This document shows, piece after piece, positions 14,005-39,100 of a stretch of DNA of 64,000 nt. Position 1 is the stretch's first letter. Every line of letters starts with the position of its first letter. The translations under genes were made by a program, and so were the position numbers. The notes under the pieces are model-generated. The model had not been told where the DNA came from. It searched no databases and saw nothing but the letters and a program-made list of their open reading frames with translations. The DNA lies in assembly GCF_036588685.1 (NCBI RefSeq), contig NC_086386.1, positions 21,576,001 through 21,640,000 on the forward strand. Direction: 5' to 3'. The stretch comes from Mytilus trossulus. Taxonomy: Eukaryota.

Positions 14005-15579
14005 TCAATAGTAAGCATGTTTCAAACTATTTGCTCGTGGAGCCACATTAACCCTTCTAGGTCTTGGTGTTTTCCGCGGTGTTTTCACAGAATCAAATCG
14101 TTCAGCATCATTTACATGTCCAGATTTCTTACATTTTAAACAACATATAATTATAGTGATCAACAACAATAAAAATCCACCACCACCACCTGCTGCGTAA
14201 TACATTAACATATTTGGCGCTTCCGGTGATTCTGGTTCCTTGGTTTGTGAAGGAACAGTCGACATTGTCAAAATCGTAGACGATGCTGTTGACATAGTTG
14301 TCGTTACCATCCTCGTAGTTGTCGGCGTCGTAGTTGGCGTTGTAGTTGGCAGCGTTGTTGTAATTGTTGTTGGTGCCGGTGTGGTTGTTGTGGTTGTTGT
14401 AGTTGTCGTCGTTGTTGTTGTTGTTGTTGTTGATAAAATTACATTAACATCAACAGTCCTTTCATCTTCGCCGAACTTCGATGATACCGATAACGTCCAG
14501 TTGCCACGGTCGGCTGATGAAGTGCCAGCAATATACAAACTACCGTTCACGTCCACGTTATGTCCATTTTGTTGTAAAGAGGAAGACGAGAACGGGGTTC
14601 CAGTCGGATTTATCCACTTGACAGTTATTGAATCGCCTTTTATCGTACAGTTTATAAATACAGACGAACCTTCATTCACTGTTACTTTTGTTTTGTCACA
14701 ATATAAAATTTTTGGAAGTATCGGATCTAGTTTAGGATCAGGAACATTGATTAATGAAATGTATTGAAGATTTGCCGGTGAATCGCAAATAATGTTTCCT
14801 ATACTGAACACGGAACTGAAGGACACTGACATGTTTTTCAGCCATTTGATTTCCCAGTTACATTTCCAAGGGTTATTTCCAAGATGTATGCTCCCCTTCT
14901 TTGTCACTATTTGTGTGAATAGTGACGACACATTAGATGGAATTGTTGTTAATTGATTTCCGGAAAGATCAACATGCTTCAAATTTGTCAGCGACGATAG
15001 AACAGTCCAGTCCAGTGTTTTTAATTTATTGCCATGAAGATCGAGAGTGGTAAGACTTTGCAACGGTTTTAGCAAAATTAAATCAAGCGTATCCAAGTCC
15101 ATTTCACCTAAGCGTAGCTCTAATAAAGTTGATAATCCATCAAATGTATTCGGTTTAATGTCACAGTTTATATTTCCCGTCAGATCGAGTGCTGTTAACT
15201 TTGTTAATCCTTGAAATGATGTCTGTGTTAATGTCTGAATTTTGTTGAACTCTAAATTCAATCTTTTCAATTCGGGTAATGTTCTAAATGCTCCAGCGTC
15301 CACTGCATCAATCCCACAATACCTCATTATTAAATGGGACATTCTGGAAGATGAAAACGCAGACGGACTGAGATGCCCAAATGAATTTGGACTTGATACG
15401 CTGCCTGAAATTGTCAACGCTGTGATTGCTGTCGGGAGATTGTTTGGAACTCCACTTATTTGGGTGAATGCACATATTGTTACTTTTGACGAACATTTAC
15501 ATCCTTGACGGCACTGCTGACTTTGAGCTGACGAAACTAGCTGAACAAATATTACCGCTTTCATAAATTGTAGATACAT
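14005..15579 (-). CDS. LRR-Ig type I transmembrane protein, 524 aa, paralog of 2784-4226, with longer Thr/Pro stalk, TM helix and ~43-aa basic cytoplasmic tail; intronless CDS
   Basis: Same ectodomain as the plus-strand copy; TM MLMYYAAGGGGGFLLLLITIIICCL followed by KCKK stop-transfer; tail ends ...SLKHAYY. Confidence 0.93.
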   Translation of the reverse strand: MYLQFMKAVIFVQLVSSAQSQQCRQGCKCSSKVTICAFTQISGVPNNLPTAITALTISGSVSSPNSFGHLSPSAFSSSRMSHLIMRYCGIDAVDAGAFRTLPELKRLNLEFNKIQTLTQTSFQGLTKLTALDLTGNINCDIKPNTFDGLSTLLELRLGEMDLDTLDLILLKPLQSLTTLDLHGNKLKTLDWTVLSSLTNLKHVDLSGNQLTTIPSNVSSLFTQIVTKKGSIHLGNNPWKCNWEIKWLKNMSVSFSSVFSIGNIICDSPANLQYISLINVPDPKLDPILPKILYCDKTKVTVNEGSSVFINCTIKGDSITVKWINPTGTPFSSSSLQQNGHNVDVNGSLYIAGTSSADRGNWTLSVSSKFGEDERTVDVNVILSTTTTTTTTTTTTTTTTTPAPTTITTTLPTTTPTTTPTTTRMVTTTMSTASSTILTMSTVPSQTKEPESPEAPNMLMYYAAGGGGGFLLLLITIIICCLKCKKSGHVNDAERFDSVKTPRKTPRPRRVNVAPRANSLKHAYY

Positions 15580-16137
15580 TGTTATAAATTTTAAAAAAAA
15601 TATTCAAAATTTGAATGTTCTAATTTTTCAATTCTATTCAACTCCCGTGTCCAATACTCTCCTATCAAGAATACTCTACGATAACTTCGAATAATTCGAA
15701 TTTATATTTTCTCGTGAATATATACAGGAGAGTCGAATCAATTATAAATATGATAGATAAGATTGAAAGTTTTTATATATTACTTATTTATGTGACTGAT
15801 TTAAGGCCATACATACATACATATTAGTTTTTCTTTCTTCTATCTCGTATTTGTTTTGATTTGTAGGTGTATATGTCAATATTCGCACATTATTCGTCGA
15901 TGTAACTCGCAGCATTTGTTTAAAGAGATAATGCTTATCATTTTTATGAGCGATACAAGCATTTTATTGGACTGTATGTAAATGCTTTTGTGTGGGTTCC
16001 TGGTTCAAAAATATAAGAAAATAGGAAGTCGGTATCTTTATGAAAGTTTTCCCACTTTACATATAATCGAGTTGATACTGTGTATTTGAACAATTTTAAA
16101 ATTGTAAATTCTACATAAGGATATATTATTATCGTAT

Positions 16138-18583: not shown

Positions 18584-19164
18584 AAGGAGTAAGTTCGGTA
18601 AGGGCCATATTTGGCCCCAATTATAAAGTTCATAGTTACAAGACAATAAATGTTTTAAGTTGCCTTAAAGACATGTTAGAAAGTTAAACAGAACTGTTTT
18701 TGTCAAAGTTTAATTCTAACACGTTGATTTTTACATCCAAAAAAGGTCAAAATAAGGGATTTTGGGGAAATTTGACAAAATCAGTAAGATTTCAACCAAA
18801 TAAAGGACCAGGAAACATAGAGCGCAGGCGTCGACTAGCTTAAGATTTAAATAAAGGATGTGAAATGTCTTCACAAACATTATTTTAAAAGATCTTTGTT
18901 GTCGACGCATGCGCTCTATGTTTCCTGTCCAATTATCTATGGAAATTTACCCATTTTCATTGATTTTTTCGTGAAAAATCAATATGAGTACAACTTTTGA
19001 CGTCATAATGAAACGCAGAAACGTAAAATTTTCAACAAAATGGTTTATATCCTAGCTAGTCAATGTATTAGCTGTAATTTATCGTGATATTGGTCGATAA
19101 ATCTGAATTTGAAATTTACGCTAAAAAAGGGGGCCATTTTAGGACCTTATCGAACATACTCCTT
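18584..19164. mobile_element. MITE (581 bp) with ~35-bp imperfect TIRs, an internal inverted repeat and a 4-bp TSD (TCCA)
   Basis: Left TCCA|AAGGAGTAAGTTCGGTAAGGGCCATATTTGGCCCC; right GGGGCCATTTTAGGACCTTATCGAACATACTCCTT|TCCA; internal IR AGGAAACATAGAGCGCAGGCGTCGAC (18810-18835) / GTCGACGCATGCGCTCTATGTTTCCT (18901-18926). Confidence 0.85.
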
Positions 19165-19329
19165 TCCAACTCATCAAGGGGCGAATTGCAATTTAAATCA
19201 GAAATTTAAAAACATTTATAACTTTTTTAAATCTTTACAGGGACAAATATCTTTAAACCCAATGAATTTATTTATCAATATGAAATGCATTATTCAAAGA
19301 TATCATGTGTTTCTTCACTTAGCACTTAA

Positions 19330-19740
19330 TGATGTGTGTGAAGTTAGCAGCCGGTTCGTTATTCGATATTCGATATTCAATATCCAACCGGCTGCTAGCA
19401 GTCGGTTGGATATTCAAAATTAAGTTGAAAATAAAAAAGGAATAATACTTAATAACATTAAAAGCATGATGATTTTTATAGTAAAAAGAACTGATAAGAC
19501 ACGTAGGAAATAGTTTCATGACCTCTTCAAGCTGTCGCATATTCTCGTTGTTCTCGAATATAAACCCTTTTCTAATTTGCATATTTGTCTAAATGTAATA
19601 TAGATTGTTGTCAATAAAAAAAAATCAAAGAGGTACAGTACTTTTACACAGGATTTTTCTTAAAAACAAAAACAAAAACCGATTACTCTAGAAAACAATT
19701 AGGATTATAAATAGAAATATTTATGGAAAGCCCATAAAAG
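19330..19740 (+). repeat. Left terminal inverted repeat, unique portion (~410 bp)
   Basis: Reverse-complement match to ~28190-28597; outer ~90 bp nearly identical, inner part clearly more diverged (e.g. CAAGCTGTCG, GAATATAAACCCTTTTC, TATAAATAGAAATAT.TATGGAAAGCC conserved). Confidence 0.9.
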
Positions 19741-22357
19741 AAATATACAGTGAAAAGCTACCTGAGACCGCTTAAATGAGGGTGAGACCCCCCTGGTCTT
19801 TCAATGTCCACAAAATTTAAGAAAATCATAGACTCTGTATATATAAAGGTTGTATCAGAAGGATTGCCAAGAATAATGTCATATTCGATATCTATGGAGG
19901 GCTTGTCACTTTTCAGCTAAAAATTATCAAAATTTTAGGACAAAGAGTACAGGGCAATAGTGAGAGCCCCCTAATTGCTCAATCTGTCTAATATTTTGCA
20001 GACATTTAGTCATTAGGTAGATACACACGTGACTAAAAGGAATATGGGTAGACTTTCTGTCTTTTATGTTTACGGAGCGCCCAAAGTGCCAGTTAGATAT
20101 TCAAAATATATAGTGAAAAGCTACCTGAGACCGCTTAAATGAGGGTGAGACCCCCCTGGTCTTTCAATGTCCACATAATTTTAGTAAATCATAGACTCTG
20201 TATATATAAAGGTTGTATCAGAAGGATTGACCAGAATAATGTCATATTCGATATCTATGGATGGCTTGTATTGTCACTTTTCAGCTAAAAATTATCAAAA
20301 TTTTAGGACAAAGAGTACAGCGCAATAGTGAGAGCCCCCTAATTACTTAATCTTTCTAATATTATGCAGACATTTAGTCAATAGGTAGATACACACGTGA
20401 CTAAAAGGAATTTGGGTATACTTCCTGTCTTTTATGTTTACGGAGCGCCCAAGGTGCTAGTTGGATATTCAAAATATATAGTGAAAAGCTACCCGAGACC
20501 GCTTAAATGAGGGTGAGACCCCCTGGTCTTTCAATGTCTACAAAATTCAAGAAAATCATAGACTCTGTATATATGAAGGTTGTATCAGAAGGATTGCCAA
20601 GAATAATGTCATATTCGATATCTATGGAGGGCTTGTATTATCACTTTTCAGCTAAAAATTATCAAAATTTTAGGACAAAGGGAACAGGGAAATGGTGAGA
20701 GCCCCCTTATTGCTCAATCTTTCTAATATTATGCAGACATTTAGTCAATAGGTAGATACACACGTGACTAAAAGGAATTGGGGTAGACTTCCTGTCTTTT
20801 ATGTATACGGAGCGCCCAAAGTGCCAGTTGGATATTCAAAATGTACAGTGAAAAGCTACCTGAGACCGCTTAAATGAGGGTGAGACCCCCTGGTCTTTCA
20901 ATGTCCACAAAATTTAAGAAAATCATAGACTCTGTATATATGAAGGTTGTGTCAGAAGGATTGCCAAGAATAATGTCATATTCGATATCTATGGAGGGCT
21001 TGTATTGTCACTTTTCAGCTAAAAATTATCAAAATTTTAGGACAAAGGGCACTGGGCAATGGTGAGAGCCCCCTAATTGCTCAATCTTTCTAATATTATG
21101 CAGACATTTAGTCAATAGGTAGATACACACGTGACTAAAAGGAATTCGGGTAGACTTCCTGTCTTTTATGTTTACGGAGCGCCCAAAGTGCCAGTTGGAT
21201 ATTCAAAATATATAGTGAAAAGCTACCTGAGACCGCTTAAATGAGGGTGAGATCCCCTGGTCTTTCAATGTCCACATAATTTTAGGAAATCATAGACACT
21301 GTATATATGAAGGTTGTGTCAGAAGGATTGCCAAGAATAATGTCATATTCGATATCTATGGATGGCTTGTATTGTCACTTTTCAGCTAAAAATTATCAAA
21401 ATTTTAGGACAAAGGGCACTGGGCAATGGTGATAGCCACCCTAATTGCTCAATCTTTCTAATATTATGCAGACATTTAGTCAATAGGTAGTTACACACTT
21501 GACTTAAAGGAATTTGGGTAGACTTTCTGTCTTTTATGTTTACGGAGCGCCCAAAGTGCCAGTTGGATATTCAAAATATATTGTGAAAAGCTACCTGAGA
21601 CCGCTTAAATGAGGGTGAGACCCCCCTGGTCTTTCACTGTCCACAAAATTTAAGTAAATCATAGACTCTGTATATATAAAGGTTGTATCAGAAGGATTGC
21701 CCAGAATAATGTCATATTCGATATCTATGGAGGGCTTGTATTGTCACTTTTCAGCTAAAAATTATCAAAATTTTAGGACAAAGGGCACAGGGCAATGGTG
21801 AGAGCCCCTAATTGCTCAATCTTTCTAATATTATGCAGACATTTAGTCAATAGGTAGATACACACTTGACTTAAAGGAATTTGGGTAGACTTCCTGTCTT
21901 TTATGTATACGGAGTGCCCAAAGTGCCAGTTGAATATTCAAAATATATAGTGAAAAGCTACCTGAGACCGCTTAAATGAGGGTGAGACCCCCCTGGTCTT
22001 TCAATGTCCACAAAATTTAAGAAAATCATAGACTCTGTATATATGAAGGTTGTGTCAGAAGGATTGCCAAGAATAATGTCATATTCGATATCTATGGAGG
22101 GCTTGTATTGTCACTTTTCAGCTAAAAAATATCAAAATTTTAGGACAGAGGGCACAGGGCAATGGTGAGAGCCCACTAATTGCTCAATCTATCTAATATT
22201 ATGCAGATATTTAGTCAATAGGTAGATACACACGTGACTAAAAGGAATTTGGGTAGACTTCCTGTCTTTTATGTTTACGGAGCGCCCAAGGTGCTAGTTG
22301 GATATTCAAAATATATAGTGAAAAGCTACCTGAGACCGCTTAAATGAGGATGAGACC
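19741..22357 (+). repeat. Tandem array of a ~367-bp unit, 7 full copies plus a partial, highly similar to each other
   Basis: GTGAAAAGCTACC.GAGACCGCTTAAATGAGG recurs 8 times; near-identical ORFs at 20507 and 20874 are 367 bp apart. Confidence 0.95.
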
Positions 22358-22384
22358 AAAGTATAGTTTTTATATATATAAATG

Positions 22385-22925
22385 ATTGTATCAAAAGTGG
22401 AATGTTCTTGAACGGACTGTTTGCTGCCGATCAGATCAGACCAGAACCCTAGGCCTAGTAGAATCGATGACCTAGTTTCAAATACAAACCGTCACTATAG
22501 GTTGAAGGGAAAACATACAGACCTTTATCACGCACCTTCACACAGCTCACACAACCACCCCTTTTGATGTAAAATCCAGGTCCAAATGCATTGTTGATCT
22601 CTTTTTCACACAGACAACACCTCATGCTGACATGAATTGTGTTCGCCAACATAGGAAGGGCTCGCATTGCCCTTTCCGCTAACATGGATAGGAATCCACT
22701 TTCTTTTTGAATGTTTTTCTTCAATTGGTTAGTGCTTTTTTCCACTAGAATAATTTTGTAGGAGCTTGGTGATCTTTTCAATCAGTCACGGGGTAAGCAA
22801 CATCTTGTGTTCACCTTGCAGGTTTGTGTGTGATAAACGAATGGTGACCGGGAAAACTTTTTTGTCTGCTCTCTGTAATATTTAGATTGACCTTTTATAA
22901 AGTTCAAACCGTATTTCGAGAGACT
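22385..22925 (-). pseudogene. Decayed Polinton core/structural ORF (GGFL / GxGLYL-type, adenovirus pX-like motif)
   Basis: Fragments across frameshifts: EYGLNFIKGQSKILQRA..VTIRLSHTNLQGEHKMLLT; QKESGFLSMLA; DKGLYV..SDGLYLK; GSGLI..NSPFKNIPLL. Confidence 0.6.
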
Positions 22926-22931
22926 ATTTAT

Positions 22932-23423
22932 TCATGCCTCGCGAAGATGGAAGCGGATGGTGAAATGTTTTCTTCCGAGATTGTGGAGGATCGCCGTCTG
23001 GATCAGTGAGGTATGTCTGCATGCGATTGATGGTTCTCAAGATCACGGGTAAGTACACCATATTTTTGGGGGGTTTGAATGATCTTTACCCCAGGATCGA
23101 TTGCGGGGGGGGGGGGGAGCTTCAGATAGTGGACTGTTGGGTGCCGTGTATGTAGCTGCTATTGATGATGCCACTGTTCACCAGGATGCTGTTGATTCTT
23201 CTGATGCTAACAATGTATTCACCCTCTTTGTAACATGTGTTGCCCGATCAAATGTGTAGAGCTGTCTCTTAAATCCCAATGTGGTGTTCGATTCCTTAAA
23301 TTGTAGTTGGGGGAGGGGGTTGAACCGAGTACAAATGCGACTGTCGTTTCCAGAGACAAGGATGGAAAACCCTTGTTTTTGGTCTGTGTTGTGGACGATT
23401 TGCTGCAACAGTGTGGTGTCCAT
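22932..23423 (-). pseudogene. Decayed Polinton minor capsid protein (penton), internally deleted
   Basis: N-terminus MDTTLLQQIVHNTDQKQGFSILVSGNDSRICTRFNP; C-terminal fragments VNSGIINSSYIHG..DPGVKIIQTP..NMVYLPV..TINRMQTYLTDPDG..FTIRFHLREA*; lies directly downstream of the MCP remnant. Confidence 0.7.
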
Positions 23424-23430
23424 TTATTTA

Positions 23431-24146
23431 TTAAAACACGACGTTCAACTACTGACCGACCGATTCGAACTGGAGGCCTAGGCCTCCTACGGAGATTGGA
23501 AGTGCAAATGCTTCGATGTTGGCGGGAACATAACGCTCGAATTCCGCTCGAATCTGGATGTCCGCTCGGACTGATGACTTACATCGATGACAAACAGCGG
23601 CTATATGTCAATGAAATCAGAGGGGTTGACACCACCGTTACTGAGGAGGGTGTCAATGTTGTAGAATTTCTTTCTGGAGTCTACATCCTCCTTGAACACT
23701 CTGGCAACCTTGTTTTGTGAAAAAAACGGCATTAAAGTCGACGGCTGAGTAGCGTTCACCTTTGAGGGTGACATGGATATTTTGCAATCGACAGCGATTG
23801 AACACGGAAGCATTATGGGTTTTGTCATTATCTCTGTCGGTTTGAAAGGCAACGATAATATATCTTCGCTTTTCTTGACCACTATTGGCAGCTAGGCGGC
23901 AGTTAAACGGTGAGGCTTGGGGAACGGCTATGAAATCACACTGTCTCATGCAAAATCCACAGAGGATCGTGGATTTTTTCTGGATGGTTTTGTACAGTTG
24001 CATCTTGTTTTCGTCTGCAGGAGTGACACTCAAGAGTTGGTAAGTTGGGCGCCGGCTTAAGGTTCGAATTCGTGAAGCTGGTATTAATATTTTTGAAGAC
24101 TTTCATCGAAGGTCAACCCTTCTGTGATTGTAAGGATGTCAGACAT
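23431..24146 (-). pseudogene. Decayed Polinton major capsid protein (double jelly-roll), large internal deletion
   Basis: Start MSDILTITEGLTFDESLQKY; C-terminal half RQCDFIAVPQ..EKRRYIIVAFQT..NASVFNRC..ERY; PLFVIDVSHQSER; FERYVPANIEAFAL; contains stops and frameshifts. Confidence 0.8.
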
Positions 24147-24159
24147 TATGTATTTATGT

Positions 24160-24480
24160 ATAGCATTGGAGGAAGTTGGGATGGTACCGATGCCACGACC
24201 AGAGATGAGATTGTTTAACTGGGTTTGGTTGTTGGGCTTTCTGCATTTAACACTGGGCTTGCTGCGTTGGTCAATGGGTTTTCGAGTGCGGGTCACTTTG
24301 TCAACGACATGGTTGACGACTACCACCTACCACTCCTATCATGGCTGCATTGGTGGCAGTGCTCATAGGCCTGCTTTTCAATGTCTTGGCAGCAGAGGAG
24401 GTGAACATGCGACCTGCGATACTGGCGATAGCGTCAAAAAACTTCTACCACCGTATGCATACTTTCGAGCAAAACCTTTC
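24160..24480 (-). pseudogene. Decayed small Polinton virion-core-type ORF with Gly-x-Gly motifs
   Basis: KGFARKYAYGGRS / FDAIASIAGRMFTSSAAKTL (amphipathic) ... QLNNLISGRGI, immediately upstream of the MCP. Confidence 0.5.
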
Positions 24481-25391
24481 TTAATTGAGGATATTTCGAT
24501 GGAGTTGCTTATATTCCTTGATGCTGATGTGTTCCCCTTTCTTTATGGCATCGAGGATCGCCATAATCGCGTTGCGCACACCATTGTTTCCAGCACGGTA
24601 TGCAGTGTTGCACAGATCCAAGCGATAGAGGAGCTGGTCAAAGTCGGAGGGTAGAAACACGGTTTGAAGTCCGCTACAATGCTTATTTTGCTTCTTTAGT
24701 TGTGAGACACAATCTTCGTCCACTTTTAGATCTTTATCGCCTTAGGGTTCTCGAGAGGGTTAATTGCCTTGATACATGGCACCGGAACTGGGACAACATC
24801 CCTAATGCGCCTTGAAATGAGGAACTCAAAAGTCACGTGTAAAGCAAAAATCTCTGTGTAGTGATATTGGACATGTTTCTATTTTTAGCAAGTGACTGAA
24901 CTTATAATTGTTTGTGGTGATTAGAAAAATAGAGGAACATAGAACGAATGTATAAAAACTATGGAGCTATTGAATGTGTTCAAAGTATTAAATTTTCAAA
25001 GAACTTATTGTGTTAAAAATGGGATATTTTACCACAAGGAGCCGCATCACAAAAGGTTGTTCGGGGTTTGCTAATTTACGGAAAAAGTTATCTCACTTCG
25101 TACCCCGAAAATTTAACCACATGTGTGAAAATGTCACAGCTTCGAAACGAGCTATCATACATATCCAAGTTAACGATATGGACTGAGCTACAGGAAAAAT
25201 CGTTACCATTACCGCCTATGTAAAAACAATTTAAGATTTTGACCCAACTGTTCAGGAATTTCTGGAGAGTCGACAAGGTCTTTTCGAGGCGATGCTGCAT
25301 GTTATTGGCTTGAATCTTCCGCTTGATCTCTTGCAACTCCCAGGCGAGCGCCTCACACTGTTTAGGGTCTGTTATCTTTATAAACGTTCAT
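24481..25391 (-). pseudogene. Decayed conserved Polinton ORF, interrupted by an AT-rich segment at ~24840-25130
   Basis: N-terminus (frameshifted) FIKITDPKQCEALAWELQEIKRKIQ; C-terminus SGLQTVFLPSDFDQLLYRLDL..AGNNGVRNAIMAILDAI, matching the PxDPxxLxxRLxL..AGN motif of Maverick-family proteins. Confidence 0.65.
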
Positions 25392-25823
25392 TTATTCAAA
25401 GCGTTGACGTGAACCTTCCTAAGTGAAGGGTTGAATACCTGTAAGCGTTTGTTTGAACGCCCCTAAGCGTTGGTTTGAACAGTTGTACCTTTCATGAAAT
25501 TATAGGCATATATCTATCGAAAGGTTAAAAAAAAACACATGCATTTTTGCTCGTTTTTCCATAAATTGAATTGAAAAGTTCGAGCGATAAATATTTGTTG
25601 ATAAACACTACAATAATTAATGGACCTATGGGTGGTACGGATAGAAAAAATACGGACTGTCAAACAGATAAATACCATATAAAACATGCTAAAAACAATC
25701 TAAATGTTCATATAACCCCACTAAGGAGGCTATATTATTCTTCAATTATCTAAAAATCTACTAAGTATTTCATTGTACAAAAACTTTCATATTTAAAAAA
25801 GTCACCATGGCCATAATGCGACA

Positions 25824-27020
25824 CTAAACTTCTAACTGTGTATTGCTACAGAACCTTATCGTTTTTTGTTTCAACCTTATCGGTAAATCAAAGCACTCAA
25901 AGTCCGCGTACACTACGAAAGGGACTCTCATCGGGTGGGTGTTGTTGACAAAAGTCAGCTGGTATGTTTTTTTTTTGGCAGCTCTGATTATGACTGCCTT
26001 GTGGTTGACGCAACACTCTTTGTTGGTTTCCAGAACTTCCTTGCTATAAACGTGGTTCAAGCACATGTAGCCTTCGATCAGCAGTAAGTTGGGTTCTCTC
26101 TCCCTCTGTTCAACAACGTTTGAAATGTGCAGCGGGTATACTTCACTATCATCTATTCTAAATACATTAACCGCCAGGGTGGAATTGGTCTTCTCAACTT
26201 AATTAATATCCTTAAGGCTTACCAGATTGAGCTCTGTGTAACACTGTCCGGTTGTTTTGGTCTACCTGCAAGGCCGAAAGTATGGCCCACTTGAAACACT
26301 CCTCGTCGTTATTTTTCACATTGATTACAGCCTTCTTGGATTTGATCCATGCTTGCTAATCAATGTACTGTGACCTACCCAGCGGTCGTTGGTAATATTG
26401 ACTTGAAATTTTACAATTGCTTTCGATGTCCAGTCACTTTTGTCAGAGGTCCACTGTGCAATCTTCTCTCCGATCTTTTCATCCATCTTCTCAATGGTTT
26501 CAAGCAAGTCCGTGGTTGAGGGGAAAATCTGGTTTCCCGAGTGAAAGTATCCCACATTCTCATCATCCATCTTACCTGTTGGGTTAATCTTCACAGTGCA
26601 GCATTACATTGACTTGTTATCCTTTCAATGCCCAATCGTCTATAAGTTCCACCCTTGACATCTGAGAGACCTCAAGGAAGGTCTTCACATCCATCTTTCA
26701 GGTAGTAAATACATCTTTAAAGGCTTTCTTCAGTTGATGTACCTCAATTTTATCCCCAATGATTTCCTATCTTCTCTGATCTGTTCCTGTAACTTCTCCA
26801 GTAGTCGATCTTTCGACATCCTGCTAACCTCTATCAACTCATGCTGTTTGGCTTGGGTGATAATATCCTTCTTAGTATAGGGTTGGGACAACGCTAAAAA
26901 AATGTTGGTCTTCGTTACGATCAACTGATCCAACTGATCCTTCCTCATCCGGAAGTACCATCGGCGGTGGTTCATTTTGGCAATTCCACTCAGGGCTTTG
27001 ACGTTTTCAACAACTAATTC
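25824..27020 (-). pseudogene. 5' remnant of Polinton protein-primed DNA polymerase B; catalytic domain deleted
   Basis: Two Rho-N/HeH-like repeats (YFRMRKDQL; VSRMSKDRLLEKL); GYFHS..SDW..VNI; KKAVINVKNNDEECFKWAILSAL; LAVNVF; CLNH..C..H; VPFVVYADFEC (exonuclease I motif), then homology stops. Confidence 0.8.
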
Positions 27021-27340
27021 CAGCTATTAATAGCTATTGGATCGACGTCTTAATCTTTATAACAATCCAAAATAAAATCAATTTGTCTCACCCAAAACCA
27101 ATATCCACGATTAAATGGTTTTTAGACCCAGCTTTTGATCTTTCGATCCTATCGTCCATATCAAAATATATAAAATTCGTGGTAACCATAACCGGTGCGC
27201 CTGGTTTTTTTCATCCCATAGCTCACAATTTGCCGAGCTCAATCGGTCTCTCTCTTTGTCAAGACGGTGGTCAGCTGCTTGTTTAATCTCTCACAACACC
27301 AAGTAGGGATGGTTGCCCCCTTCCAACATCAGGTTATAAT

Positions 27341-28190
27341 GTCTGCCTACCTATTAACTAAATGTCTGCTTAGTAATACAAAGATTGAGAGATTAGAGGG
27401 CCATCACCATTGCCCTGTGCCCTTTGTCCTAAAATTCTGATTATTTCGGCTAAAATGTGACAATATAAGCCCTCCATATATATCGAATATGACAATATTC
27501 TGGGAAATCCTTCTAATACAACCTTCATATATACATAGTCTATGATTTTATTAAATTTTATAGACATTGAAAGATTAGGGGGGTCTCACCCTTATTAAAG
27601 CGGTCTCGGGTAGGTTTTCGCTATATATTTTGAATATCCAACTGGCACTTTGGGCGCTCCGTAAACATAGAAGACCGGAAGTGTACCTAAAGTCCTTCTA
27701 GTCACGTTTGTATCTACCTATTGACTAAATGTCTGCATAATATTAGAAAGATTGAGAGATCAGGGGGCTCTCACCATCACCCTGTGCCCTTTGTCCTAAA
27801 ATTTTGACATTTTTTGACTGAAAAGTGACAATCTTAGCCCTCCGTAGATATTGAAGATGACGTTTTTCTGAAAAATCCATCTAAAACAATCTTTATATAT
27901 ACAGGGTCAATGATTTGGTTGAGTTTTATGGACATTAAAAGACCAGGGGGGTCTCAACCTCATTTTAGCGGTCTCGGGTAGGTTTTCGCTATATATTTTG
28001 AATATCCAACTGGCACTTTGGGCGCGCCGTAAACATAGAAGACCGGAAGTGTACCTAAAGTCCTTCTAGTCACGTTTGTATCTACCTATTGACTAAATGT
28101 CTCTTAAATATTAGAAAGATTGAGAGATCAGGGGGCTCTCACCATCACCCTGTGCCCTTTGTCCTAAAATTTTGACATTTTTTGACTGAA
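27341..28190 (-). repeat. Inverted array of the same ~367-bp unit, ~2.3 copies, more diverged from the left-arm copies
   Basis: ACTAAATGTCT recurs at ~27357, ~27725 and ~28093; ORF 27370-27567 (-) is a diverged version of the 20507/20874 ORFs. Confidence 0.93.
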
Positions 28191-28597
28191 ATTTTGTTTT
28201 TTTGGCTTTCCATATATATTTCTATTTATAGTTATAAATATTTCTGGAGTTATTGGTTTTTCTTTTTGTCGTAAGAAATATTATACACAAAAGTACATCT
28301 TTGAAGTCTTTTTTGTGACAAAACTCTATGATACATACAGACAAATAAGTCGCACGGAAAAGGGTTTATATTCAAGGACAACGAGAAATTACGACAGCTT
28401 GAAAAGGTCATTTTATGATTCCTACGTATCTAATCAGTCCTTTTTACTATGAAAATCATGCGTTTTATGATATCAAGTATTTAATTTTCTTATGATTTTT
28501 CATTTAATTTTGAATATCAAACTGGCTGCTAGCAGCCGGTTGGATATTGAATATCGAATAACGAATAACGAACCGGCTGCTAACTTCACATACATCA
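28190..28597 (-). repeat. Right terminal inverted repeat, unique portion
   Basis: Reverse complement of 19330-19740; ends ...CACATACATCA followed by CTTAA. Confidence 0.9.
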
Positions 28598-29735
28598 CTT
28601 AATGTATCTACACTTAATGTATCTAAATCCAAATAAGCGCTTTGGAGACACAATTAAGGTTTAAACTAATATTGCATGATACTAGCAGTGGGTTAATATA
28701 TATCACTGCGGGTGGTATATCAGTCCCTAAGTGTAGCATCAGCTCATGATAAGTTAGTTCGAGTTTCGGAACAGACGTTATTTATCATATAAGTATTATT
28801 CGTCGATCATTGTCAGATGTCATTTGTAAACTCTCTACATGTGCACTTCATAACAAATTGAACAAAACTATGCAGGGATATTTTGCTTATAAAACTTCCT
28901 CATTTCGTTTATGATCGATTGATTTATTGATTGTTGTTATTTGATTCGAGTCCAGTGGCAAATGGTGTTTGTATGATAAAGACAAGAACGAATTTACAAT
29001 TTACAATGATTACAACAGTGGGAACAGGTAGGTTCTGTGGGAAGGGATCGGTTGGGGTGAGAGACAGCAAATTTGAACAGTCAGTGAAAATGAGAGACGA
29101 AAGAGGACAACGCCATGACTAAAAAAGAAAAGGACAAACAAACAACAGACAACAAATCACAACATAGAAAATTAAAGTAACACGAACCCCACAAAAAACT
29201 GGTTACCCGTCTAGTTTCACATATCGAATAAAAAAAAATGGGAATACGTCTCATTTGGTAGGTCACATTCAGGGAAAAGAAAGCGCTTGTAGTTACGACA
29301 TTAGGATCATATCCACTATAATCTGTGAAACGATTATTCCATAACGGTCAATCAGCTCGTAACGGCGTCCGTATCATTTACGAAGGTATGGTTGAAAAAT
29401 TAGGATATGTTGGATAACCAAAGGTATTTTGATTTAAAACTTAATTTTCTGCCGAATGGGAAAAGCTTCCGTGCTTCATACAAAATGTACATCGGTCAAC
29501 ATTTTAAAATACACACAATAAATTTACAAAAAGAAGCATGTGATTTTTAAATCCAACTCGTGATTGCGTCCACAGTTAAACAAATTGAAAGTTACAAGTG
29601 ATAAATTCAGGCCAATCTTATTCGCGTCGGTTCATTTAATATCTTAGCCGTATTTGGCAAAACTTTTTTGGAATTTTGGGTGCTCAATGCTTTTCAACTT
29701 TGTACTTGTTTGGCTTTTTAACTGTTTTGATATGA

Positions 29736-31397: not shown

Positions 31398-33991
31398 TTA
31401 TGTTTCCCAAATTTTGTTGTTCTGTACTAAGGTTCGTTTTGCTTTCTTTATCATTTTTCTGAGCACGTCCAGTTCAGATGTCACTAATTGGTCACAGAAA
31501 TGACGAGTCATTACGAACTCGGAGTTCCATTCTGATTTTTCTATTGTGCAGGAACGTTTTTTAATATTCCTGCAAAATTTGTGCACACTTGCAATTATTT
31601 TCTTAAAATGTCGTACTTCAGTATAAAAAGAATCATTCTGTTGAGTTATTTGATTTTCGAGACGTGTTTTGAAGAAGTCGTACAGTAAATTATCAGCATT
31701 GTTCAGATTCCTGACGATGTCTATGTCTTCTCTTGTCAGATTTGGTTTGACGGTATTCCGCCATATCCCTTTGTTAACCGGTTGATACAGTATATCTTGT
31801 ATATCCCAGCATAAGTACCTTCTCATCAAAACCAGAGATTCGTCGAAAAGCTCAGTTATGATTACAAGTTTGAAATCCTTATCAAGTTCCCGGATGTATT
31901 CTAGAACAAACGAAGTATTTGATGTTTTTGATTTGGGGATACCGAAGTCATACGACATTCCATTAGTAAAAGACCGCCCTATAGCATACTGTTGGTATAC
32001 CTTCTTCACTATAAATTCGTGTAAAAGCAAACTCCGTTTTATATTTGGAAATTTCCTCATAACAAGTTTATTAAAGCTGAAGTGGTAAAACGCAGACTTG
32101 AATACTGATAATGGATCACGAAGTATTCCGATGCGAACTGTGTCGTTTGGCATAATCTTCTCAAAATCTTGTTTATTATAAATTGCATGGTTGCAAAGAA
32201 TGTTATAAGACATATTTTTCGGTAAGCGAAGTACTGTTTCTTTCAACTTTAAATATTTAGATGATAGATAATTAAACATAGAGCCATTGTCTCTCTTTGG
32301 AAGAACCATATTTAAATTGTTGGCTTGTACAAATCTTGTAAAAATTCCCCATGCTGTTGTACTCCCTGTTTTGTGAACTTTTACGAATATCACATTTCTT
32401 TGTTTATTGCACGTGTTCTCTATCAATTCATTCGGCATATCGTCTGCGTACGATTTTCTTACAAAATATCGATCTGGTATTGCTTTAAAAGCTTTTGATG
32501 TCATTGCCCTCTTTTCTATTCCGTCCAAATTATGAGATGTCCACTGTATTTTCGAGTTAACATTTATATTGGATTTATGTATTATTACAAAAACCACAAT
32601 TACGAATAATCCGATTATCCTGAAATGTAAAAAAAATATATTTTAAAAACAATATGTTAAAATTCGAGTGCATTATCCATGAGAACAAAATAAGTAATTT
32701 AGCTTTAAAATGTATAAACTTATTTGTATGTTGTTACAGAAAAGACGGATAAGGTTTTCTATTTACTATTATCATTAATATACAAATTAATAATACCAAT
32801 TGTATACATATAGGTTAAGATGACCTTCTTTAACATTAAACTTCATTCATATGCAAGATTGTATTTTTCTATAACCTGCTGTTGCGTAAATCTGGACCAT
32901 AGCATACAATTAAGTTAACCTCATTCATGAAATATTTAGGTCAAGTCGTGAAAATTTTAACATAATCAAGAACATTTTACCATAAAAAAAACTACCAATG
33001 AAATTATAAAATAATATCTGAAATATGTTTCCTCTTAAACTGACAAAATTATTGAGTATTGTCATATGAAAAACTAATAACTTTCAGATTTATATTAATC
33101 TAGCTATATCGTCAATATGTATCGCTTCATTTTAAGTCGATTAATATCGAGATATTTTAGTCGATTAATATGGGTCATACCAGTCGATTAAAATGGGTCA
33201 TATATCGAGTTACTTCACTTGTGAATGTGTATCAATTAGTCGATTATTCTTGTTCTGCGATTTTGGATTCTTATTGACTATATATAAATATATTCATTCA
33301 AATTGTTTTTAATTCCCAGTCTTTGTAAGAAGATTATCATAACATGGTTGAAACGAACCTAGTACCGACATAACCATCCTATTTTGAAGGTCTTTCGTTT
33401 CTATGGGTCTGTCAATTCGTGTAATATCTAGTTAACTCTTGGTAAGCAAATTACGGAGTTATCTACCCTTATTGTTTATTTCTAGTACATTTCAACCAAA
33501 TTATATGTTGAAATAACAAAACAGGAAAAAGAAACGATTATAGGACCATAAGTGTTTATCCTTATATCAATTATACATTTAAGTTCTGCGTTAGTGTGTT
33601 AAAATGGTTAATCTAAATTTTAAAATTCCAAACCAAACATGTGTTTTTATGAAAGGTTTATTGTAATTTGTAATATCAAAATGTCAGACTTAAAAAAATA
33701 CCAGTTATTAATAGATAACGTTCCTCAAAATGTAAAACGTCACAACATACACGCGCATTTCAGATATCAATATAACAAACGATTTGGAAGATATACAAAT
33801 ATTAGAAAAATCGCCACGTCTATATCATTGTGCCCGCCAATTGACAATGTATTTTTTTCAAATCTCAACCAGAAGCGACACGGGGTTTTGGAAGTCGAAT
33901 CTTAATATTTGGAAGATAATATAATTACTAAAACTAGACAATTTACTTACTTCCATGCTGAAAGCAATTTTTTCCAGTACACTAAAAGCAT
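31398..33991 (-). CDS. Galactose-3-O-sulfotransferase family (GAL3ST-like) type II Golgi protein; exons 33991-33951 and 32619-31398, ~420 aa
   Basis: 5'-PSB motif IFVKVHKTGSTT; YNILCNH; 3'-PB ILRDPLSVFKSAFY; ITELFDESLVLMRRYLCW; NNADNLLYDFF. A phase-2 intron (AA|gtaagt...tttcag|G) gives MLLVYWKKLLSAWKIIGLFVIVVFVII, a signal anchor. Confidence 0.92.
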
Positions 33992-34787: not shown

Positions 34788-35751
34788 AGTTCCAAACTTT
34801 ATTAAAATATAATATATAAAAACAATTACTTTTATTCATTTAGCCAGGTTTAACCTACCGGTCAAATCCCACGTATAAAGGTGGATCAAACAGAGGGCTG
34901 TGTATAAAAATAAATGATTTTCTATCGGAAAGTAAAAGTGATTGTTTAGATTTTTTTGTGCATTGGATACTTGACACTTAGAAAACAAATTGACACAAGA
35001 GGGTACGTCTTTAGTGCATTTGATTCCTTCTTTTGCAAAAAGGTAGAAATCTAAAGCTTAATGTATCTAAAGTATGATATTGATAATGAAAAATATCAGA
35101 TTACGAAGTACGTGTAGATGAGAAATATAAACCACAACTATTGGAAAATTGCTGTATTTTCTTCAATAGTTATCAAAGATACCCCATGATTATAATTTAG
35201 TACGCCAGACGCGCGTTTCGTCTTCAAATATGATAGAAAAGGCATTGCATATCAAGGAGAATCTATGAAGTCATGTAATGCTATTATGTATTGAATTAGT
35301 TTTAATAAAAAGAGAAATATCAGTAATTGTTAATGCGACTGCAACTGAACTGCACACGTTCACTGAAATGGAGACCTAGAGGTCATTAAATAGAAGTATT
35401 CAACTATTGACCATCGGTCACATATACCAAATACAAAATCTAATTTAGCGATGTCATGTACTTTAAAATTACAACATTACAATGGCTACGACAAATAACA
35501 TATCAATTGTGACACAAATTTTCTATAAAGGCCAACCAAATCCTTATTGCTAACTTTCAACATATTTGAAGTGCATGATGGCTTCAACATGGCCATTATA
35601 GAAACTATTTGTTCCTTGTAAATAGCAACCATGTATCAAGGAAGTCATCATGGAAATGCAGATCCTAGAACATTTAAATAAAATGCAATGTGCAAGTGAT
35701 TTTACTTTATTTTTTCAAAGGAAAACTCACAACGGGAAAATGAAATATTAA

Positions 35752-36115
35752 AACGAAGATATGGTATGATTGCCAATGAGACAACTATCCACAAAAGACC
35801 AAAAATGACACAGACATTAACAACTATATGTCACTGTACGGCCTTCAACAATGAGCAAAGCCCATATCGCATAGTCAGCTATAAAAGGCCCCGATAAGAC
35901 AATGCAAAACAATTCAAACGAGAAAGCTAACGGCCTTATTTATGTAAAAAAAATTAACGAAAAACAAGACCCGTTGGTGTCCTTCTGCTGTTGTTTTTTT
36001 CTATGGTCGGGTTGTTGTCTCTTTGATACATTCCCCATTTCCATTCTCAATTTTATGTAACACATAAACATACGACAACCACTGAATTACAGGCTCCTGA
36101 CTTTGGACAGGCACA
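35752..36115 (+). mobile_element. Interspersed repeat copy containing a nested ~87-bp fragment of another repeat end (35968-36054)
   Basis: Collinear with 51222-51500 apart from the insert, which matches 50586-50674. Confidence 0.8.
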
Positions 36116-39100
36116 TTAATAAAGTCACTATATTCTTTTTGTCATTGAATCTAGCATGCCATTGACATTTTCTTGCAATTGAAGATACTCAGCAATGTTA
36201 CTTTATCTGTGGTATAATTTATTTTAGTTTCAAGGGAGATAGATGTCATCAACAACTTTATCAAAATGAATACATCGTGTATATAGCGTAATATTTATTT
36301 GAAGATTTAAGCTGGCTTCTTTTCATTCTTCTCTTTAATAAGAAGACCCTGTGGGTATAGGAATAAACGGATGTGAGGGGTTTGCGGTAATGAAACAGAA
36401 ATAAAATTACAAAAAAATATCAATACACATCCTCCTGAGTACAACATATACAATATCTATCACGTTTTGAGTAGTATCAAATTAATAAAATTTGTGAAGA
36501 ATAATACATTAATCATAAAATGTCTAAATAGCATTCCTATAACTTGAACTATCTAATATTTTAATGGCTACCTAGAAACCCCCTTCAGATTAACTTTGTA
36601 ATAAGGCATGGTCAAGAGTCGTGAAATTGTGTTTACACAGTAACAAAATTAATGTTTACATTTTGCATTATATTCCTATTAATTAAAAATGAATGTTAAA
36701 GGTTTGCAGCTGATGGCCCAAATACAACAGTACTTCACTTGTAAAACCAAAGATATTGCCTTCATCTTTTCTTTGCTGATGATTGGACCAAAGTTCTACC
36801 GATATTTGCTCTCAGATTAGTAGTGAAAAGATTATTCATAGGCTGAAGTTAATTAGCATTTTTCTGCCCTTTTGATACTTTAAATGTACAAAACATCGGA
36901 CTACAGATCGAAAGTATTTGTACGACTAACTTGGTGATATTTTGTTTGATTATTAACAGCATTCAAGGCATGTGTGACTTGCTTAACTTGTTAGTTAAAA
37001 CTCATGAAAGAAGAAGAAGATATGTTAGCGTATATATGATATATGACATTCGTATATTTATGATATATTGCACATACAACCTTAACAGGTTATGCATGAT
37101 CTTGAGCTATATAAAAATATGTCCCCACTAAAACGTAGTTCCATTTCTAAAATTACAATTCTTACTTAGTTGATTGTTAGTGTCGTGCAATATTCAAGGC
37201 GGGAAAAATTGAACAATTTGTACAATATACATGATATAGGAAAGTTGAGTCTAGACAAAGCGGGGAGTTGTAGATGACCACTAGAAATACGTTTGGTGGA
37301 AAAGAAATAGATCTTTCTTTACTTTAGAAACTTAAAAAAGGAACTATGATTAAGCTATATATAGTGACAACACCTAAAAAAATGAAAAGAAACTAAAACC
37401 ATTGCAAACCTAATTTCAAGTATCAGTAGTAATCGATTCGAAATAAATACCAATAGAAAAATCACAGTTAAAACGTCACTTGACCACAGTCAATTTCAAA
37501 ATTACTAGGGGCAGCACTCACTGTTACAGAATGAAAAGATTTTAATGCTTGCACAGCACCATGGCCACCACAAAATAATTCTCTGTGGTATAAAAATGTC
37601 TGCATAGAGAACTTAAAACATCAACATAAAAATTTATTCAACTAACTATATAAAAATATATGAATAGTCCATTATTATTTTATTTAGCGTGTTTAATTTC
37701 ATGACATATCGGGTAACAAAAGAGGAGTAACAGTACATGTTGTTTCATTTCCACTCACCCGTTAATTCGATTAACCTCTCTGCATGCTTCTGACCTATGG
37801 AGGTAGAGGTTTTACTATCCATGATTTTTTAATTTCTTCTCAGTTTTAGTTATATTTCGTTTCGGTGACATTCGTTTTTACAGAGAGTACAGTTTATAGT
37901 CGTAAGAAGCCAATGCATTTACAATCATGGTATAACTTATATATATATATTGAATTTTATCAAAATAATACTTGACACTGTGTGTGCTTTTACGTTAGGA
38001 CGTGAAGAGCTGAATCTGCACTGTACGTTTGTAAATAGGATCTTGAAAAACAACAAATCTGGTACGTACAATTAAGTGCACATGCAGTCCTTACTGAATA
38101 AATTGTTCATACCGATTTCGTGAATGGTTATACATATAAATAACGCCAGAATATATAAGGTTATACATATAAATAACGCCAGAATATATAATGATTTGTT
38201 TAATTCAACACAATTTGTAGTATAATTATAAGTCAACAAAGCAGTCATGATATGAACTCTTGTTCAGTAGCAGGATCTGCTTTGCCTTACACATCCGCGA
38301 AGCACGTTAGATCACAGGTGGCCCAGTTCTTTGTTGGGTTCTTGTCTTTCGATTTTCTATTAGGGATTTTGATTAGTTTGACGAGACTGTTAATTGTCTT
38401 TTCGTCTCTCAGCTCCTTGTTGTCATAGTATCATCGGGTTTTCTTTAACTTTTAATTTTAAATTATATCGTTGGTATCTCCTGTCTCTTTTCTTTGATTG
38501 GTGAATCTAGTTTATCTATGTTAATGGGAACAGACGCACGTTCAATTATGGTTGTAAAATTACTTCGGCATAACATTGTATAGAATTGTATGTACTTTTA
38601 GCCATCTACACATTCAATGCATGTCTCTGATTTTTATTTATCTATGTGTATGGTGGTTTCTTTTAAATGCAAGGTACATTAGTACAAATTTGATACAGAC
38701 CTCTAAACTATAATAGACATGGAGTCAATTCAAATAGAGTCAAATCTTCCAACGAGTTATTCGTCGTTGTTACCACATGTTCTTTAACACAATTTACTAT
38801 CACCAATAGGTTTCATTTTCTTCTTAAACTCTATGATTGAATTTTGTACTGTATACCTTTTGACTGTATACACAATTGTCATTTCTCCCTTTATTTGAGA
38901 GCCTTTTTGGTCAGCAAACTGATGAACCAATACAGGACATGCAATCAGAAAGCTCTATTATACGTTTATATATATCAAATCGGTGTATATTCACTCTTCA
39001 AATAAGAACTTGCCAAAGTAAACCAAATGACTTTTGGCAGATATGTTTTCTTTTAGTTTTTATATTATACTCGTTGTATATTTACTTCTAAAATTCTGGG

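Follow-up and report, generated by a model that had tools for sequence, protein, structure and literature searches.

Foldback elements are already known as carriers of satellite DNA from Tetris of Drosophila virilis, described as non-autonomous with modular inverted repeats, an outer flanking domain and variable tandem units (PMC4079207). The element reported here, ~9.3 kb long, shares this plan and holds broken Polinton genes between two satellite-bearing arms; it lies in a window from Mytilus trossulus, the whole stretch of 64,000 nucleotides that was analysed. Its units are of 367 bp, against 220 bp in Tetris, and its flanking duplication, if read as 9 bp at the one site analysed, would fall within the 8-10 bp given for Tetris (PMC4079207). 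Both elements share their tips with a MITE, DAIBAM for Tetris and L001 for the Mytilus element, and as far as the cited account of Tetris goes a transposase has been found for neither (PMC4079207). In contrast, Tetris is described with a non-coding middle in a fly host, whereas ~4 kb of dead Polinton genes and two nested repeats fill the middle of the bivalve element (PMC4079207).

Capture of foreign genes between inverted repeats has also been described. For the Caenorhabditis briggsae MULE with the Maverick cargo msft-1/tlpr-1, MULE insertion into a Maverick was proposed, and DNA is carried between long inverted repeats (10.1101/2022.07.12.499685). That element has one live cargo gene, a MULE transposase and 870-bp repeats that are 96.7% identical (10.1101/2022.07.12.499685), whereas the Mytilus element has a dead core-viral block, satellite arrays in diverged arms and no transposase that we found. 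Pack-MULEs likewise carry gene fragments between inverted repeats and depend on a trans-acting transposase, but they are described from plants with host gene fragments (PMC6431247), while the Mytilus element has viral cargo and arms of foldback type.

The cargo itself resembles Polintons/Mavericks/adintoviruses in its pPolB, double-jelly-roll capsid, penton and core genes, which are homologous to ORFs of an intact Polinton, L005 (PMC8097293, PMC8502044). Set against Polintons, the Mytilus element has only broken genes, lacks integrase, ATPase and protease, is 9.3 kb long, shows no 6-bp duplication or AG/AGT end, and has imperfect arms. Polinton-1N1_DR is a non-autonomous element. It is named here (PMC9341505) alongside the mobile polB-less Polintons of Pieris as a parallel for a defective Polinton; in the latter, defective Polinton DNA was amplified after polymerase loss (10.1101/2025.02.07.637071). 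The Pieris elements are described as keeping other Polinton genes and repeats, whereas in the Mytilus element all genes are dead and the ends look non-Polinton. Satellites borne by oyster Helentrons are a further likeness, being short arrays dispersed by non-autonomous elements in bivalves (PMC7492417), but Helentrons are rolling-circle elements with central arrays (PMC12628747), and the arrays of the Mytilus element lie in both inverted arms.

Results

Tips, arms and satellite arrays

On each side of the element, a conserved ~95-bp tip in which motifs recur is followed by ~310 bp of unique sequence and then by a variable array of 367-bp units, and the interior consists of the ~4 kb of dead Polinton genes and the two nested repeats.

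19332..19428, + strand: left tip domain, with three copies of a 12-bp motif (19345+, 19386-, 19396+) and a palindrome with the 16-bp motif shared with the satellite
19429..19740, + strand: left inner unique arm, AT-rich (26% GC), 78% identical to the right arm
19741..22357, + strand: left array, 7.1 x 367 bp, units 93.5-97% identical to each other
27340..28191, - strand: right array, 2.3 units, ~86% identical to the left units
28192..28500, - strand: right inner unique arm
28501..28595, - strand: right tip domain, with three copies of the 12-bp motif

The earlier note had described intact termini of ~90 bp. Over their outermost 90 bp the two ends do agree at 85 of 90 positions, but the inverted repeat is longer than this: the unique inverted arms align over ~410 bp (327 matches, 76 mismatches), and the repeat runs on past that point into the arrays. 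The inner part is 78% identical (238/306), and the better conservation of the tips (Fisher p=0.0016) supports the earlier view of preserved termini. Near-identical terminal inverted repeats were not found, with the inner arm at 78% and the arrays at 86%; age explains a divergence of ~5-6%. The left tip domain folds as DNA (z=-4.1). The unique arm was also considered as an old satellite unit and was rejected, since it has no similarity to the unit (z -1.1 and 0.5).

Differences between the left and right arms would be explained by a composite transposon, in which two foldback insertions of different subfamilies flanked a Polinton fossil, lost their inner arms and moved together. The left units, 93.5-97% alike and ~86% alike to the right units, and the tips at 94% fit this origin, and foldback-bounded composites are known in Drosophila (PMC6431247). 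However, all six sites of the 12-bp motif fall within the two outer tips, with no inner-tip remnants, and the composite is a sub-case of a foldback origin, indistinguishable from long drift within one element; we regard it as highly improbable.

A single long inverted repeat of modular build has the two opposed arrays as its inner domain; together they measure ~3.46 kb (7.1 + 2.3 copies), in agreement with the ~3.5 kb reported before. The right array starts at about 27340-27347 and its innermost unit is the most diverged (83%), while the degenerate tail of the left array (to ~22395) adjoins the last codons of the pX-like gene. The 16-bp tip motif recurs in each satellite unit, with 13 sites in the element and none in the other ~55 kb of the window, a pattern that fits the suggestion of arrays as putative protein-binding platforms. 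The companion suggestion, that arrays are length stuffers, found no support, as the element has 9.3 kb against 12.7-24.6 kb in the intact vertebrate Mavericks described (PMC8097293). In X24 raw reads the satellite depth was 19-44x the interior depth, compared with 9.4 units in the window copy, which counts towards a foldback transposon; longer arrays in other copies could, however, be the source of this excess.

Flanking duplication and end motifs

19323..19331, no strand: left flanking direct repeat in its 9-bp reading (CACTTAATG), an exact match to 28596-28604
28596..28604, no strand: right flanking direct repeat in its 9-bp reading, an exact match to the left copy

An exact flanking duplication can be read as 9, 7 or 5 bp, the shorter readings being inner parts of the 9-bp repeat; 6 bp fits no symmetric ends. 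All three readings are exact because the site starts with CA and finishes with TG, and the terminal bases become ATGT, GATG or TGAT according to the duplication length chosen. The duplication claimed previously therefore exists and its 5-bp CTTAA reading fits, but that reading is not unique. The coincidence odds for 9, 7 and 5 bp were ~27:2.4:1, which at this one site puts 9 bp ahead of 5 bp by 27:1 and ahead of 7 bp by 11:1. The right repeat also opens a 15-bp tandem duplication in the flank (28596-28625).

Two other end definitions were tried and rejected. A canonical AG...CT end with a 6-bp duplication requires one more deletion, on the left side, together with a chance agreement of 4 bases. 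The second definition, Academ-like TAG...CTA ends and a duplication of 4 bp, would need several indels in the first 18 bases, while the remaining tip has 2 mismatches in 60.

These ends bear on a defective, helper-dependent Polinton, whose arms would be its own inverted repeats with expanded satellite and which would depend on intact relatives for trans-acting integrase and polymerase. Read as 5 bp, the duplication leaves TG...CA termini like those of integrase-type elements (PMC2836005, PMC10045372), and 5 or 7 bp fall within the 5-8 bp given for Polintons in one review sentence (10.1101/2023.08.22.554363). However, the 5-bp reading takes ~27x more coincidence than 9 bp, the Polinton target duplication is otherwise given as 6 bp (PMC10045372, PMC8097293), which was not found, and the (AG)3, (AGT)2 or (AC)3A end motifs of vertebrate Mavericks (PMC8097293) are absent from the ends of the element.

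Polinton gene remnants and nested repeats

22386..22848, - strand: pX-like core protein remnant, E=2e-12 to an L005 ORF, with a stop and frameshifts
22938..23423, - strand: penton (minor capsid) remnant, E=9e-11, ~103 codons missing near 23283, frameshifts including one at ~22986
23434..24149, - strand: double-jelly-roll major capsid remnant, PF21738 E=6e-11, 165/234 aligned codons identical to P0001
24150..24479 (aligned 24331-24479), - strand: small core protein remnant, matching L005 ORF 7787-8143 at low score, 15/50 identical, frameshift near 24439
24484..24786, - strand: C-terminal part of a ~300-aa Polinton ORF, homologue of L005 6878-7777, E=8e-9
24790..25245, no strand: nested MITE-like insert 1, GGG...CCC ends, 7/9 terminal match, 4-bp flanking repeat AACT
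25250..25387, - strand: N-terminal part of the ~300-aa Polinton ORF, weak match, E=0.042
25530..25849 (left edge approximate), no strand: nested insert 2, depth ~630, 956 loose ends at 25849 of mixed sequence (agreement 0.51)
25878..27023, - strand: 5' half of protein-primed DNA polymerase B (pPolB), with stops and frameshifts near 26760, 26589, 26390 and 26245

The interior is Polinton-derived, with homologues of the major capsid, the minor capsid (penton), core proteins and the 5' half of pPolB; matches to L005 ORFs had E=1e-8 to 1e-32, with the small core gene matching weakly. The description of the genes as dead was confirmed by stops, frameshifts and large deletions in the capsid, penton and pPolB remnants. 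In the major capsid 189/429 codons are missing at 24028, and there are a 19-nt deletion near 23562, a frameshift near 23724 and stops. pPolB has lost 30 internal codons at 26067-26070 and everything beyond ~25878, and the stretch deleted from it includes residues invariant in 9/9 relatives. The reported lack of integrase, ATPase and protease also held, as those of L005 gave no tblastn match in the element at E<=0.5; at E<=0.01, the L006 ORFs for integrase and ATPase and the L007 ORF for integrase likewise gave none. With these three genes missing and no intact pPolB, the element is not an autonomous Polinton. A six-frame Pfam scan of 22360-27399 detected no transposase, the sole family above the cut-off being the capsid, and Rfam gave 0 matches anywhere in the window.

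The two nested inserts, which the earlier note did not mention, make up ~0.8 kb of the interior and are unrelated high-copy repeats at 20-30x the read depth of the Polinton part. Insert 1 interrupts the ~300-aa ORF, and has an X24 depth of ~950 versus ~30, with 576 loose ends at 24789. Insert 2 adjoins the pPolB truncation and is probably the truncated end of a non-autonomous DNA transposon.

Relatives of the tips, arrays and genes

The tip and array motifs had 0 matches in IMG/VR viral contigs, 0 in prokaryote genomes and 4 in metagenomes (L001-L004). L002-L004 have no inverted motif partner and look like chance. L001 is a 318-bp MITE without Polinton genes, both tips of which are formed by a 20-bp tip motif of the element; it begins 6 bp inside the element tip, and the duplication of the MITE itself is degenerate. 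In viral contigs, one capsid sequence used as the query retrieved no match, while alignment-based queries found the Polintons L005-L007. No paper on this element was found in the literature, as judged at listing level, and the tip motif was not found in the main texts searched or in 12 of 33 supplementary files of PMC10294476, the rest of which may hold a bivalve repeat library naming the family.

Gene position and terminal repeats give the helper-dependent Polinton some support. Like the corresponding ORFs of L006 (beginning at 1730) and L007 (at 915), pPolB points inward, with its start ~1.6 kb from the right tip, and L006 bears minisatellites in its terminal 1.7 kb (one end examined). On the other hand, the inverted repeats of L005 are 99% alike over 1.09 kb, against 78% for the inner arms here, the tip motif ends a MITE that lacks Polinton genes, and the tips and arrays are absent from the three IMG/VR Polintons, all of them distant relatives.

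Spread after gene death

Comparison of lesions supports copying of the element after its genes broke, as had been proposed, because disabling lesions recur in independent records and one animal has ~16-32 interior copies. Two M. edulis gene models, P0091 and P0092 (on 212- and 486-kb contigs), which could be two haplotypes of one locus, share with the window copy the loss of 30 pPolB codons and the out-of-frame tail that follows, and the ENA proteins P0093 and P0094 terminate at the same premature stop. Gene model P0023 of M. trossulus, an example of element copies entering gene annotation, reads through the frameshift near 26390; its first 31 residues come from a copy of the element and its other 563 residues are absent from the window. 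In contigs from two organisms, compared over the interior and both array junctions, the 30-codon pPolB deletion was bridged by X15 record 14, the penton frameshift near 22986 by X2 record 18 (depth 153, 0 gaps), the 19-nt capsid deletion by X1 record 1, and the right array/interior junction by X1 record 8 and X15 record 16. A further frameshift is common to P0091 and P0092 and absent from the window, so dead subfamilies apparently kept branching; further deletions are shared among them, with the joint 23724-23792 found in 3/4 runs. The copy number was estimated from X24 alone, leaving aside the depths of the X1, X2 and X15 contigs; in X24 a median depth of 30.5 over 21 Polinton-derived bins corresponds to the ~16-32 copies at a genome size of 1-2 Gb. 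Multiple copies with shared disabling lesions are the mark of a mobile non-autonomous family.

Other records thus carry the pPolB deletion, the 19-nt capsid deletion, frameshifts and the array junction, but several other lesions are not shared. The 189-codon capsid deletion is missing in P0079 and probably also in X2 record 20, the frameshift near 24439 in P0078 and its cluster, and a 13-nt deletion at 22614 in 8/11 X24 reads; part of the depth therefore comes from less-damaged relatives. The existence of such close relatives favours a helper-dependent Polinton, for which the evidence of spread after death fits equally well and the mobile polB-less Polintons reported in butterflies give a precedent (10.1101/2025.02.07.637071). 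Weighed with its ends and arms, we consider that explanation possible but rather doubtful.

The private lesions also favour decay in place, by which a single Polinton inserted and died, and its region was duplicated passively (segmentally or in tandem) or inherited by several mussel species; 96% of vertebrate Maverick copies are described as degraded fossils (PMC8097293), and no run held half of the interior's words. Decay in place accords poorly, however, with an exact duplication of 9 bp (or 5/7 bp) and tips differing by 5.5% around arms that differ by 22% and genes whose large deletions are shared, with the number of copies in one animal, with P0023 belonging to a gene absent from the window, and with dead subfamilies sharing further deletions, and we judge it unlikely.

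Three clocks gave ~2.5-3%: the tips are 5/90 apart, the left units are 2.8% from the majority state, and word shares were 0.31-0.43 (runs with shares of 0.00-0.03 left out). From these we infer that the window copy inserted ~2.5-3% sequence change ago. Under the 2.8% clock, 7 stops were seen against 2.4-3.5 expected, a modest excess (p 0.01-0.07), and the frameshift excess in the capsid gene was not significant (p=0.23); small lesions were rejected as too weak a proof of death before insertion. Word shares were also rejected as proof of a widespread dead form, since less-damaged relatives give the same shares.

Discussion

In this study, we propose that the element is a Tetris-like non-autonomous foldback DNA transposon, most likely of the Mutator superfamily, that carries a dead Polinton gene block, with a probability of roughly 55%. 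It has the long modular inverted repeats of foldback elements, with an outer domain and unequal arrays, and a middle without transposase. Duplication length and end motif, together with the asymmetry of the arms and a related tip in a MITE, point more to foldback cut-and-paste, and on these same grounds Polinton ends served by a Polinton helper, as the earlier note had it, are unsupported as stated. We give even odds to a fuller history, in which a mussel Mutator-type foldback transposon captured a Polinton core block, spread this dead block through several Mytilus species until it numbered tens of copies, and gained nested repeats and a satellite repeating the tip motif.

In the proposed mechanism, a host cut-and-paste transposase acting in trans would bind the tips, and possibly the array motifs, and would excise and reinsert the whole unit, making the 9-bp duplication. 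The arms and cargo would drift freely, because this route requires the tips only, without homogenisation of the arms. The Polinton block may have been acquired through insertion of a Polinton into or next to a foldback element, or the reverse, with deletions following.

Should the ends instead be those of a Polinton, a fully gene-dead Polinton would have moved in trans, defining the minimal cis signals. If they are cut-and-paste ends, a single captured fossil could inflate counts of endogenous Polintons made from capsid matches and inverted repeats, and dating by the ends would give the age of the carrier, not of the virus. The tip motif in every satellite unit offers a testable reason for array growth inside inverted repeats. 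If the foldback reading is true, Pack-type capture would be extended from single Maverick cargo genes to a core viral gene block, and foldback-borne satellites from flies to bivalves. Furthermore, many of the sequences with inverted repeats that look like Polinton insertions in these genomes would be passengers of host transposons, not infections.

Results

The element has the following parts, which lie between two terminal tips:
19741-22357, left array of a 367-bp unit, 7.1 copies
24790-25245, insert 1, MITE-like, with GGG...CCC ends and AACT flanks
about 25530-25849, insert 2
27347-28191, right array of the 367-bp unit, 2.3 copies

The two arrays, delimited with Tandem Repeats Finder, are mutually inverted, as the earlier note had described. 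Preservation of the outer ~90 bp was also claimed, and the tips do match at 85 of 90 positions, but the inverted repeat that begins there is ~410 bp long before the arrays start, and the arrays extend it further. The inner part of the arms is less alike (238/306 identical; tip versus inner, Fisher p=0.0016). Identity is 93.5-97% among units of the left array and ~86% between left and right units; it falls to 83% for the innermost right unit. A 12-bp motif occurs three times per tip, and a 16-bp motif is present in both tips and every 367-bp unit, with 13 sites within the element versus 0 elsewhere in the window at no more than two mismatches. On sequence comparison, the unique arm is not an ancient 367-bp unit, and this candidate was rejected. 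The anatomy of tip, unique stretch and array therefore indicates that the arms are a single modular repeat in a foldback layout, the same arrangement as excerpts of PMC4079207 describe for Tetris.

The genes between the arms lie on the minus strand and are, starting from the right, the 5' half of pPolB, an ORF of ~300 aa, a small core gene, major capsid, penton and a pX-like core gene. All are homologous, the small core gene only weakly, to ORFs of L005 (1-16929, IMG/VR), an intact 16.9-kb Polinton with a complete linear genome and 1.09-kb terminal repeats that are 99% identical. When the L005 integrase, ATPase and protease served as queries, no match was found anywhere in the element, which bears out the previously noted lack of integrase, packaging ATPase and protease. 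The breakage of all internal genes was likewise confirmed by mapping the breaks, among them a 30-codon pPolB deletion that takes out residues invariant in 9/9 relatives, and the last codons of the pX-like gene are fused to a degenerate 367-bp unit. Among named records, gene models of Mytilus edulis and M. trossulus come closest (83-94% identity), which makes a mussel the probable host. The middle of the element is Polinton-derived; the element does not qualify as an autonomous Polinton. A Polinton-like contig, L007, carries three or four tandem paralogous ORFs with 9-bp (collagen-like) repeats at 7692-10042.

Four runs were mapped onto 22240-27560 at 85% likeness, and the listing covers 40/785 substitutions, 12/49 indels, 15/148 joints, 24/1792 loose ends and 24/10319 pieces. 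In X24, raw reads of one animal (1934 Mb read), median depth was 30.5 (range 16-81) across 21 Polinton-derived bins, equal to 16-32 interior copies if the genome is 1-2 Gb. An excerpt of PMC11183127 gives 1.34 Gb for M. galloprovincialis. Depth reached ~950 in insert 1 and ~630 in insert 2 versus ~30 in the Polinton parts, and these are therefore two nested foreign repeats. Insert 1 has about 500-1000 copies in X24; among the joints listed in X2, a contig run, its end is joined back onto its start at high depth, which suggests that it forms tandem arrays elsewhere. Insert 2 shares its final ~40 bp with a different family (at 25809, 430 loose ends with an agreement of 0.94, among the loose ends listed), and its end is TAG on the minus strand, which we take to resemble Academ ends.

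Of the interior's words, 31-43% were present in 18 of the 24 listed runs (four organism labels and a mollusc metagenome, eight studies) and at least half in none, shares that cannot by themselves tell dead copies from less-damaged relatives. X15-X18, contig sets of only 20-28 Mb, hold 38-40%, reflecting either high-copy DNA or transcripts.

Tip divergence (2.8% per side), left array unit divergence (2.8%) and divergence from word shares (2.7-3.7%) agree on one age for the window copy. The 22% arm difference would therefore be older than the insertion. Stop codons are in modest excess (7 in 851 codons, 2.4-3.5 expected).

Several lesions recur in independent records. The 30-codon pPolB deletion is common to two M. 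edulis gene models (P0091 and P0092); among the pieces listed, X15 record 14 bridges it, and X1 record 6, at a depth of 948, and X15 record 13 cover it with just 27 bases on one side. P0091-P0094, the latter two being ENA proteins, have in common the pPolB frame break near 26760 and the stop that belongs to it; the break near 26390 is found in P0023, an M. trossulus model. Also among the pieces listed, X2 record 18 carries the penton frameshift, X1 record 1 has the 19-nt major capsid deletion, and both X1 record 8 and X15 record 16 span the right array junction. X15 record 9 covers the penton deletion with ~22 bases on one side, short of the tool's bridging rule of 31 bases. Among the indels listed, a minority of X24 reads depart from the window at each of six frame-breaking sites (6/18, 7/21, 5/19, 1/19, 7/32 and 0/36), against 361/459 at a control indel in insert 2; in X1 contigs, however, the majority of depth differs at two of the six sites. 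P0023 (XP_063448080.1) is a mucin-like protein whose first 31 residues come from a dead pPolB frame (matching window 26379-26486), through either an exapted first exon or annotation error.

Other lesions are unshared. P0079, a protein relative, lacks the 189-codon capsid deletion, as does, probably, X2 record 20 among the pieces listed. Neither the relative P0078 nor any of its five cluster members has the frameshift near 24439. Among the indels listed, 8/11 X24 reads lack the 13-nt deletion at 22614. Some changes are missing from the window copy, namely recurrent deletions (joint 23724-23792 in X1, X2 and X15, among the joints listed) and one additional frameshift common to P0091 and P0092. 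The proposal that the element moved after gene death is thus upheld by the common lesions and the X24 copies, but not for every lesion.

The window as a whole consists of AT-rich animal DNA. Its other features include ORFs whose names we assume from sequence recognition, LRR-Ig-like ones among them:
2778-4226 (+) and 14005-15603 (-), inverted single-exon LRR-Ig-mucin-like pair ~10 kb apart, 92% identical across 1189 bp, C-terminal ends differing
18777-18957, 181-bp imperfect palindrome (71%) ~370 bp left of the element, probably an old MITE
31398-32642 (-), presumably sulfotransferase-like
43966-46782 (+), presumably protocadherin-like
52371-52799 (-), presumably C1q-domain-like
35745-36124, 50583-51633, 55177-56374 and 62222-62589, dispersed repeat family in both orientations, 68-95% alike

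Discussion

We consider that the ends probably belong to a host cut-and-paste carrier of foldback or Mutator type (probability about 0.55), a reading that gains slightly when a composite sub-case is included. The putative target site of the element is CACTTAATG, of which an empty allele would carry a single copy. Because the site starts with CA and finishes with TG, three exact lengths fit the direct repeat at the junctions: 9 bp, which leaves ends of ATGT...ACAT, 7 bp, and 5 bp, which leaves TG...CA. With symmetric ends, a length of 6 bp does not fit. When the chance matches required by each length were counted from the window's base frequencies, the values were 0.080, 0.0072 and 0.0030 for 9, 7 and 5 bp, a ratio of 27:2.4:1. 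The CTTAA duplication of the earlier note is accordingly real as an exact duplication, but its length also reads as 9 or 7 bp, with 9 favoured.

The same note held that the ends are the Polinton's own and that a helper moved the element, which we regard as the less likely reading. Excerpts of PMC10045372 and PMC8097293 give Polinton target duplications as 6 bp, a length that does not fit symmetric ends here, although part of one preprint allows 5-8 bp (10.1101/2023.08.22.554363). The end motif, (AG)3, (AGT)2 or (AC)3A in vertebrate Polintons according to excerpts of PMC8097293, is absent from the element, and the arms are unhomogenised, unlike the L005 repeats (99% over 1.09 kb). Nevertheless, pPolB lies ~1.6 kb from the tip and points inward, as in two of the three Polintons compared, L006 has minisatellites close to its end, the 5-bp reading with TG...CA ends resembles the integrase type, and mobile Polintons without polB are reported (10.1101/2025.02.07.637071). 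The terminal repeats of L005 themselves start with TTATTG rather than AG.

The host carrier is further supported by the repeated tip motifs and by a satellite depth of 19-44 times interior depth versus 9.4 units in the window copy. A 19-base tip motif matched four loci in metagenomes, three of which look like chance matches. The motif also ends both tips of a 318-bp MITE on contig L001 (2990-3307), whose 142-bp arms are 84% complementary and in which no Polinton content was found; it starts 6 bp inside the tip of the window element and is flanked only by a degenerate 8-9-bp repeat. A second inverted-repeat element (1381-1780) and a terminal 14-16-bp tandem array are present on that contig.

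The element would work like Tetris or a Pack-MULE; its membership in Mutator is putative, as no partner transposase was found. Each ingredient has precedent, judging from excerpts of the sources: satellites borne by foldbacks (PMC4079207), Maverick cargo taken up by a MULE (10.1101/2022.07.12.499685) and defective yet mobile Polintons (10.1101/2025.02.07.637071). At the level of titles and listings, no report was found of the element or of a foldback with a core Polinton gene block, and the family may already be named in further supplements of PMC10294476 or in Repbase. Our verdict is that the element is real, multi-copy and gene-dead, and the picture is of a family that broke stepwise while its multiplication continued.
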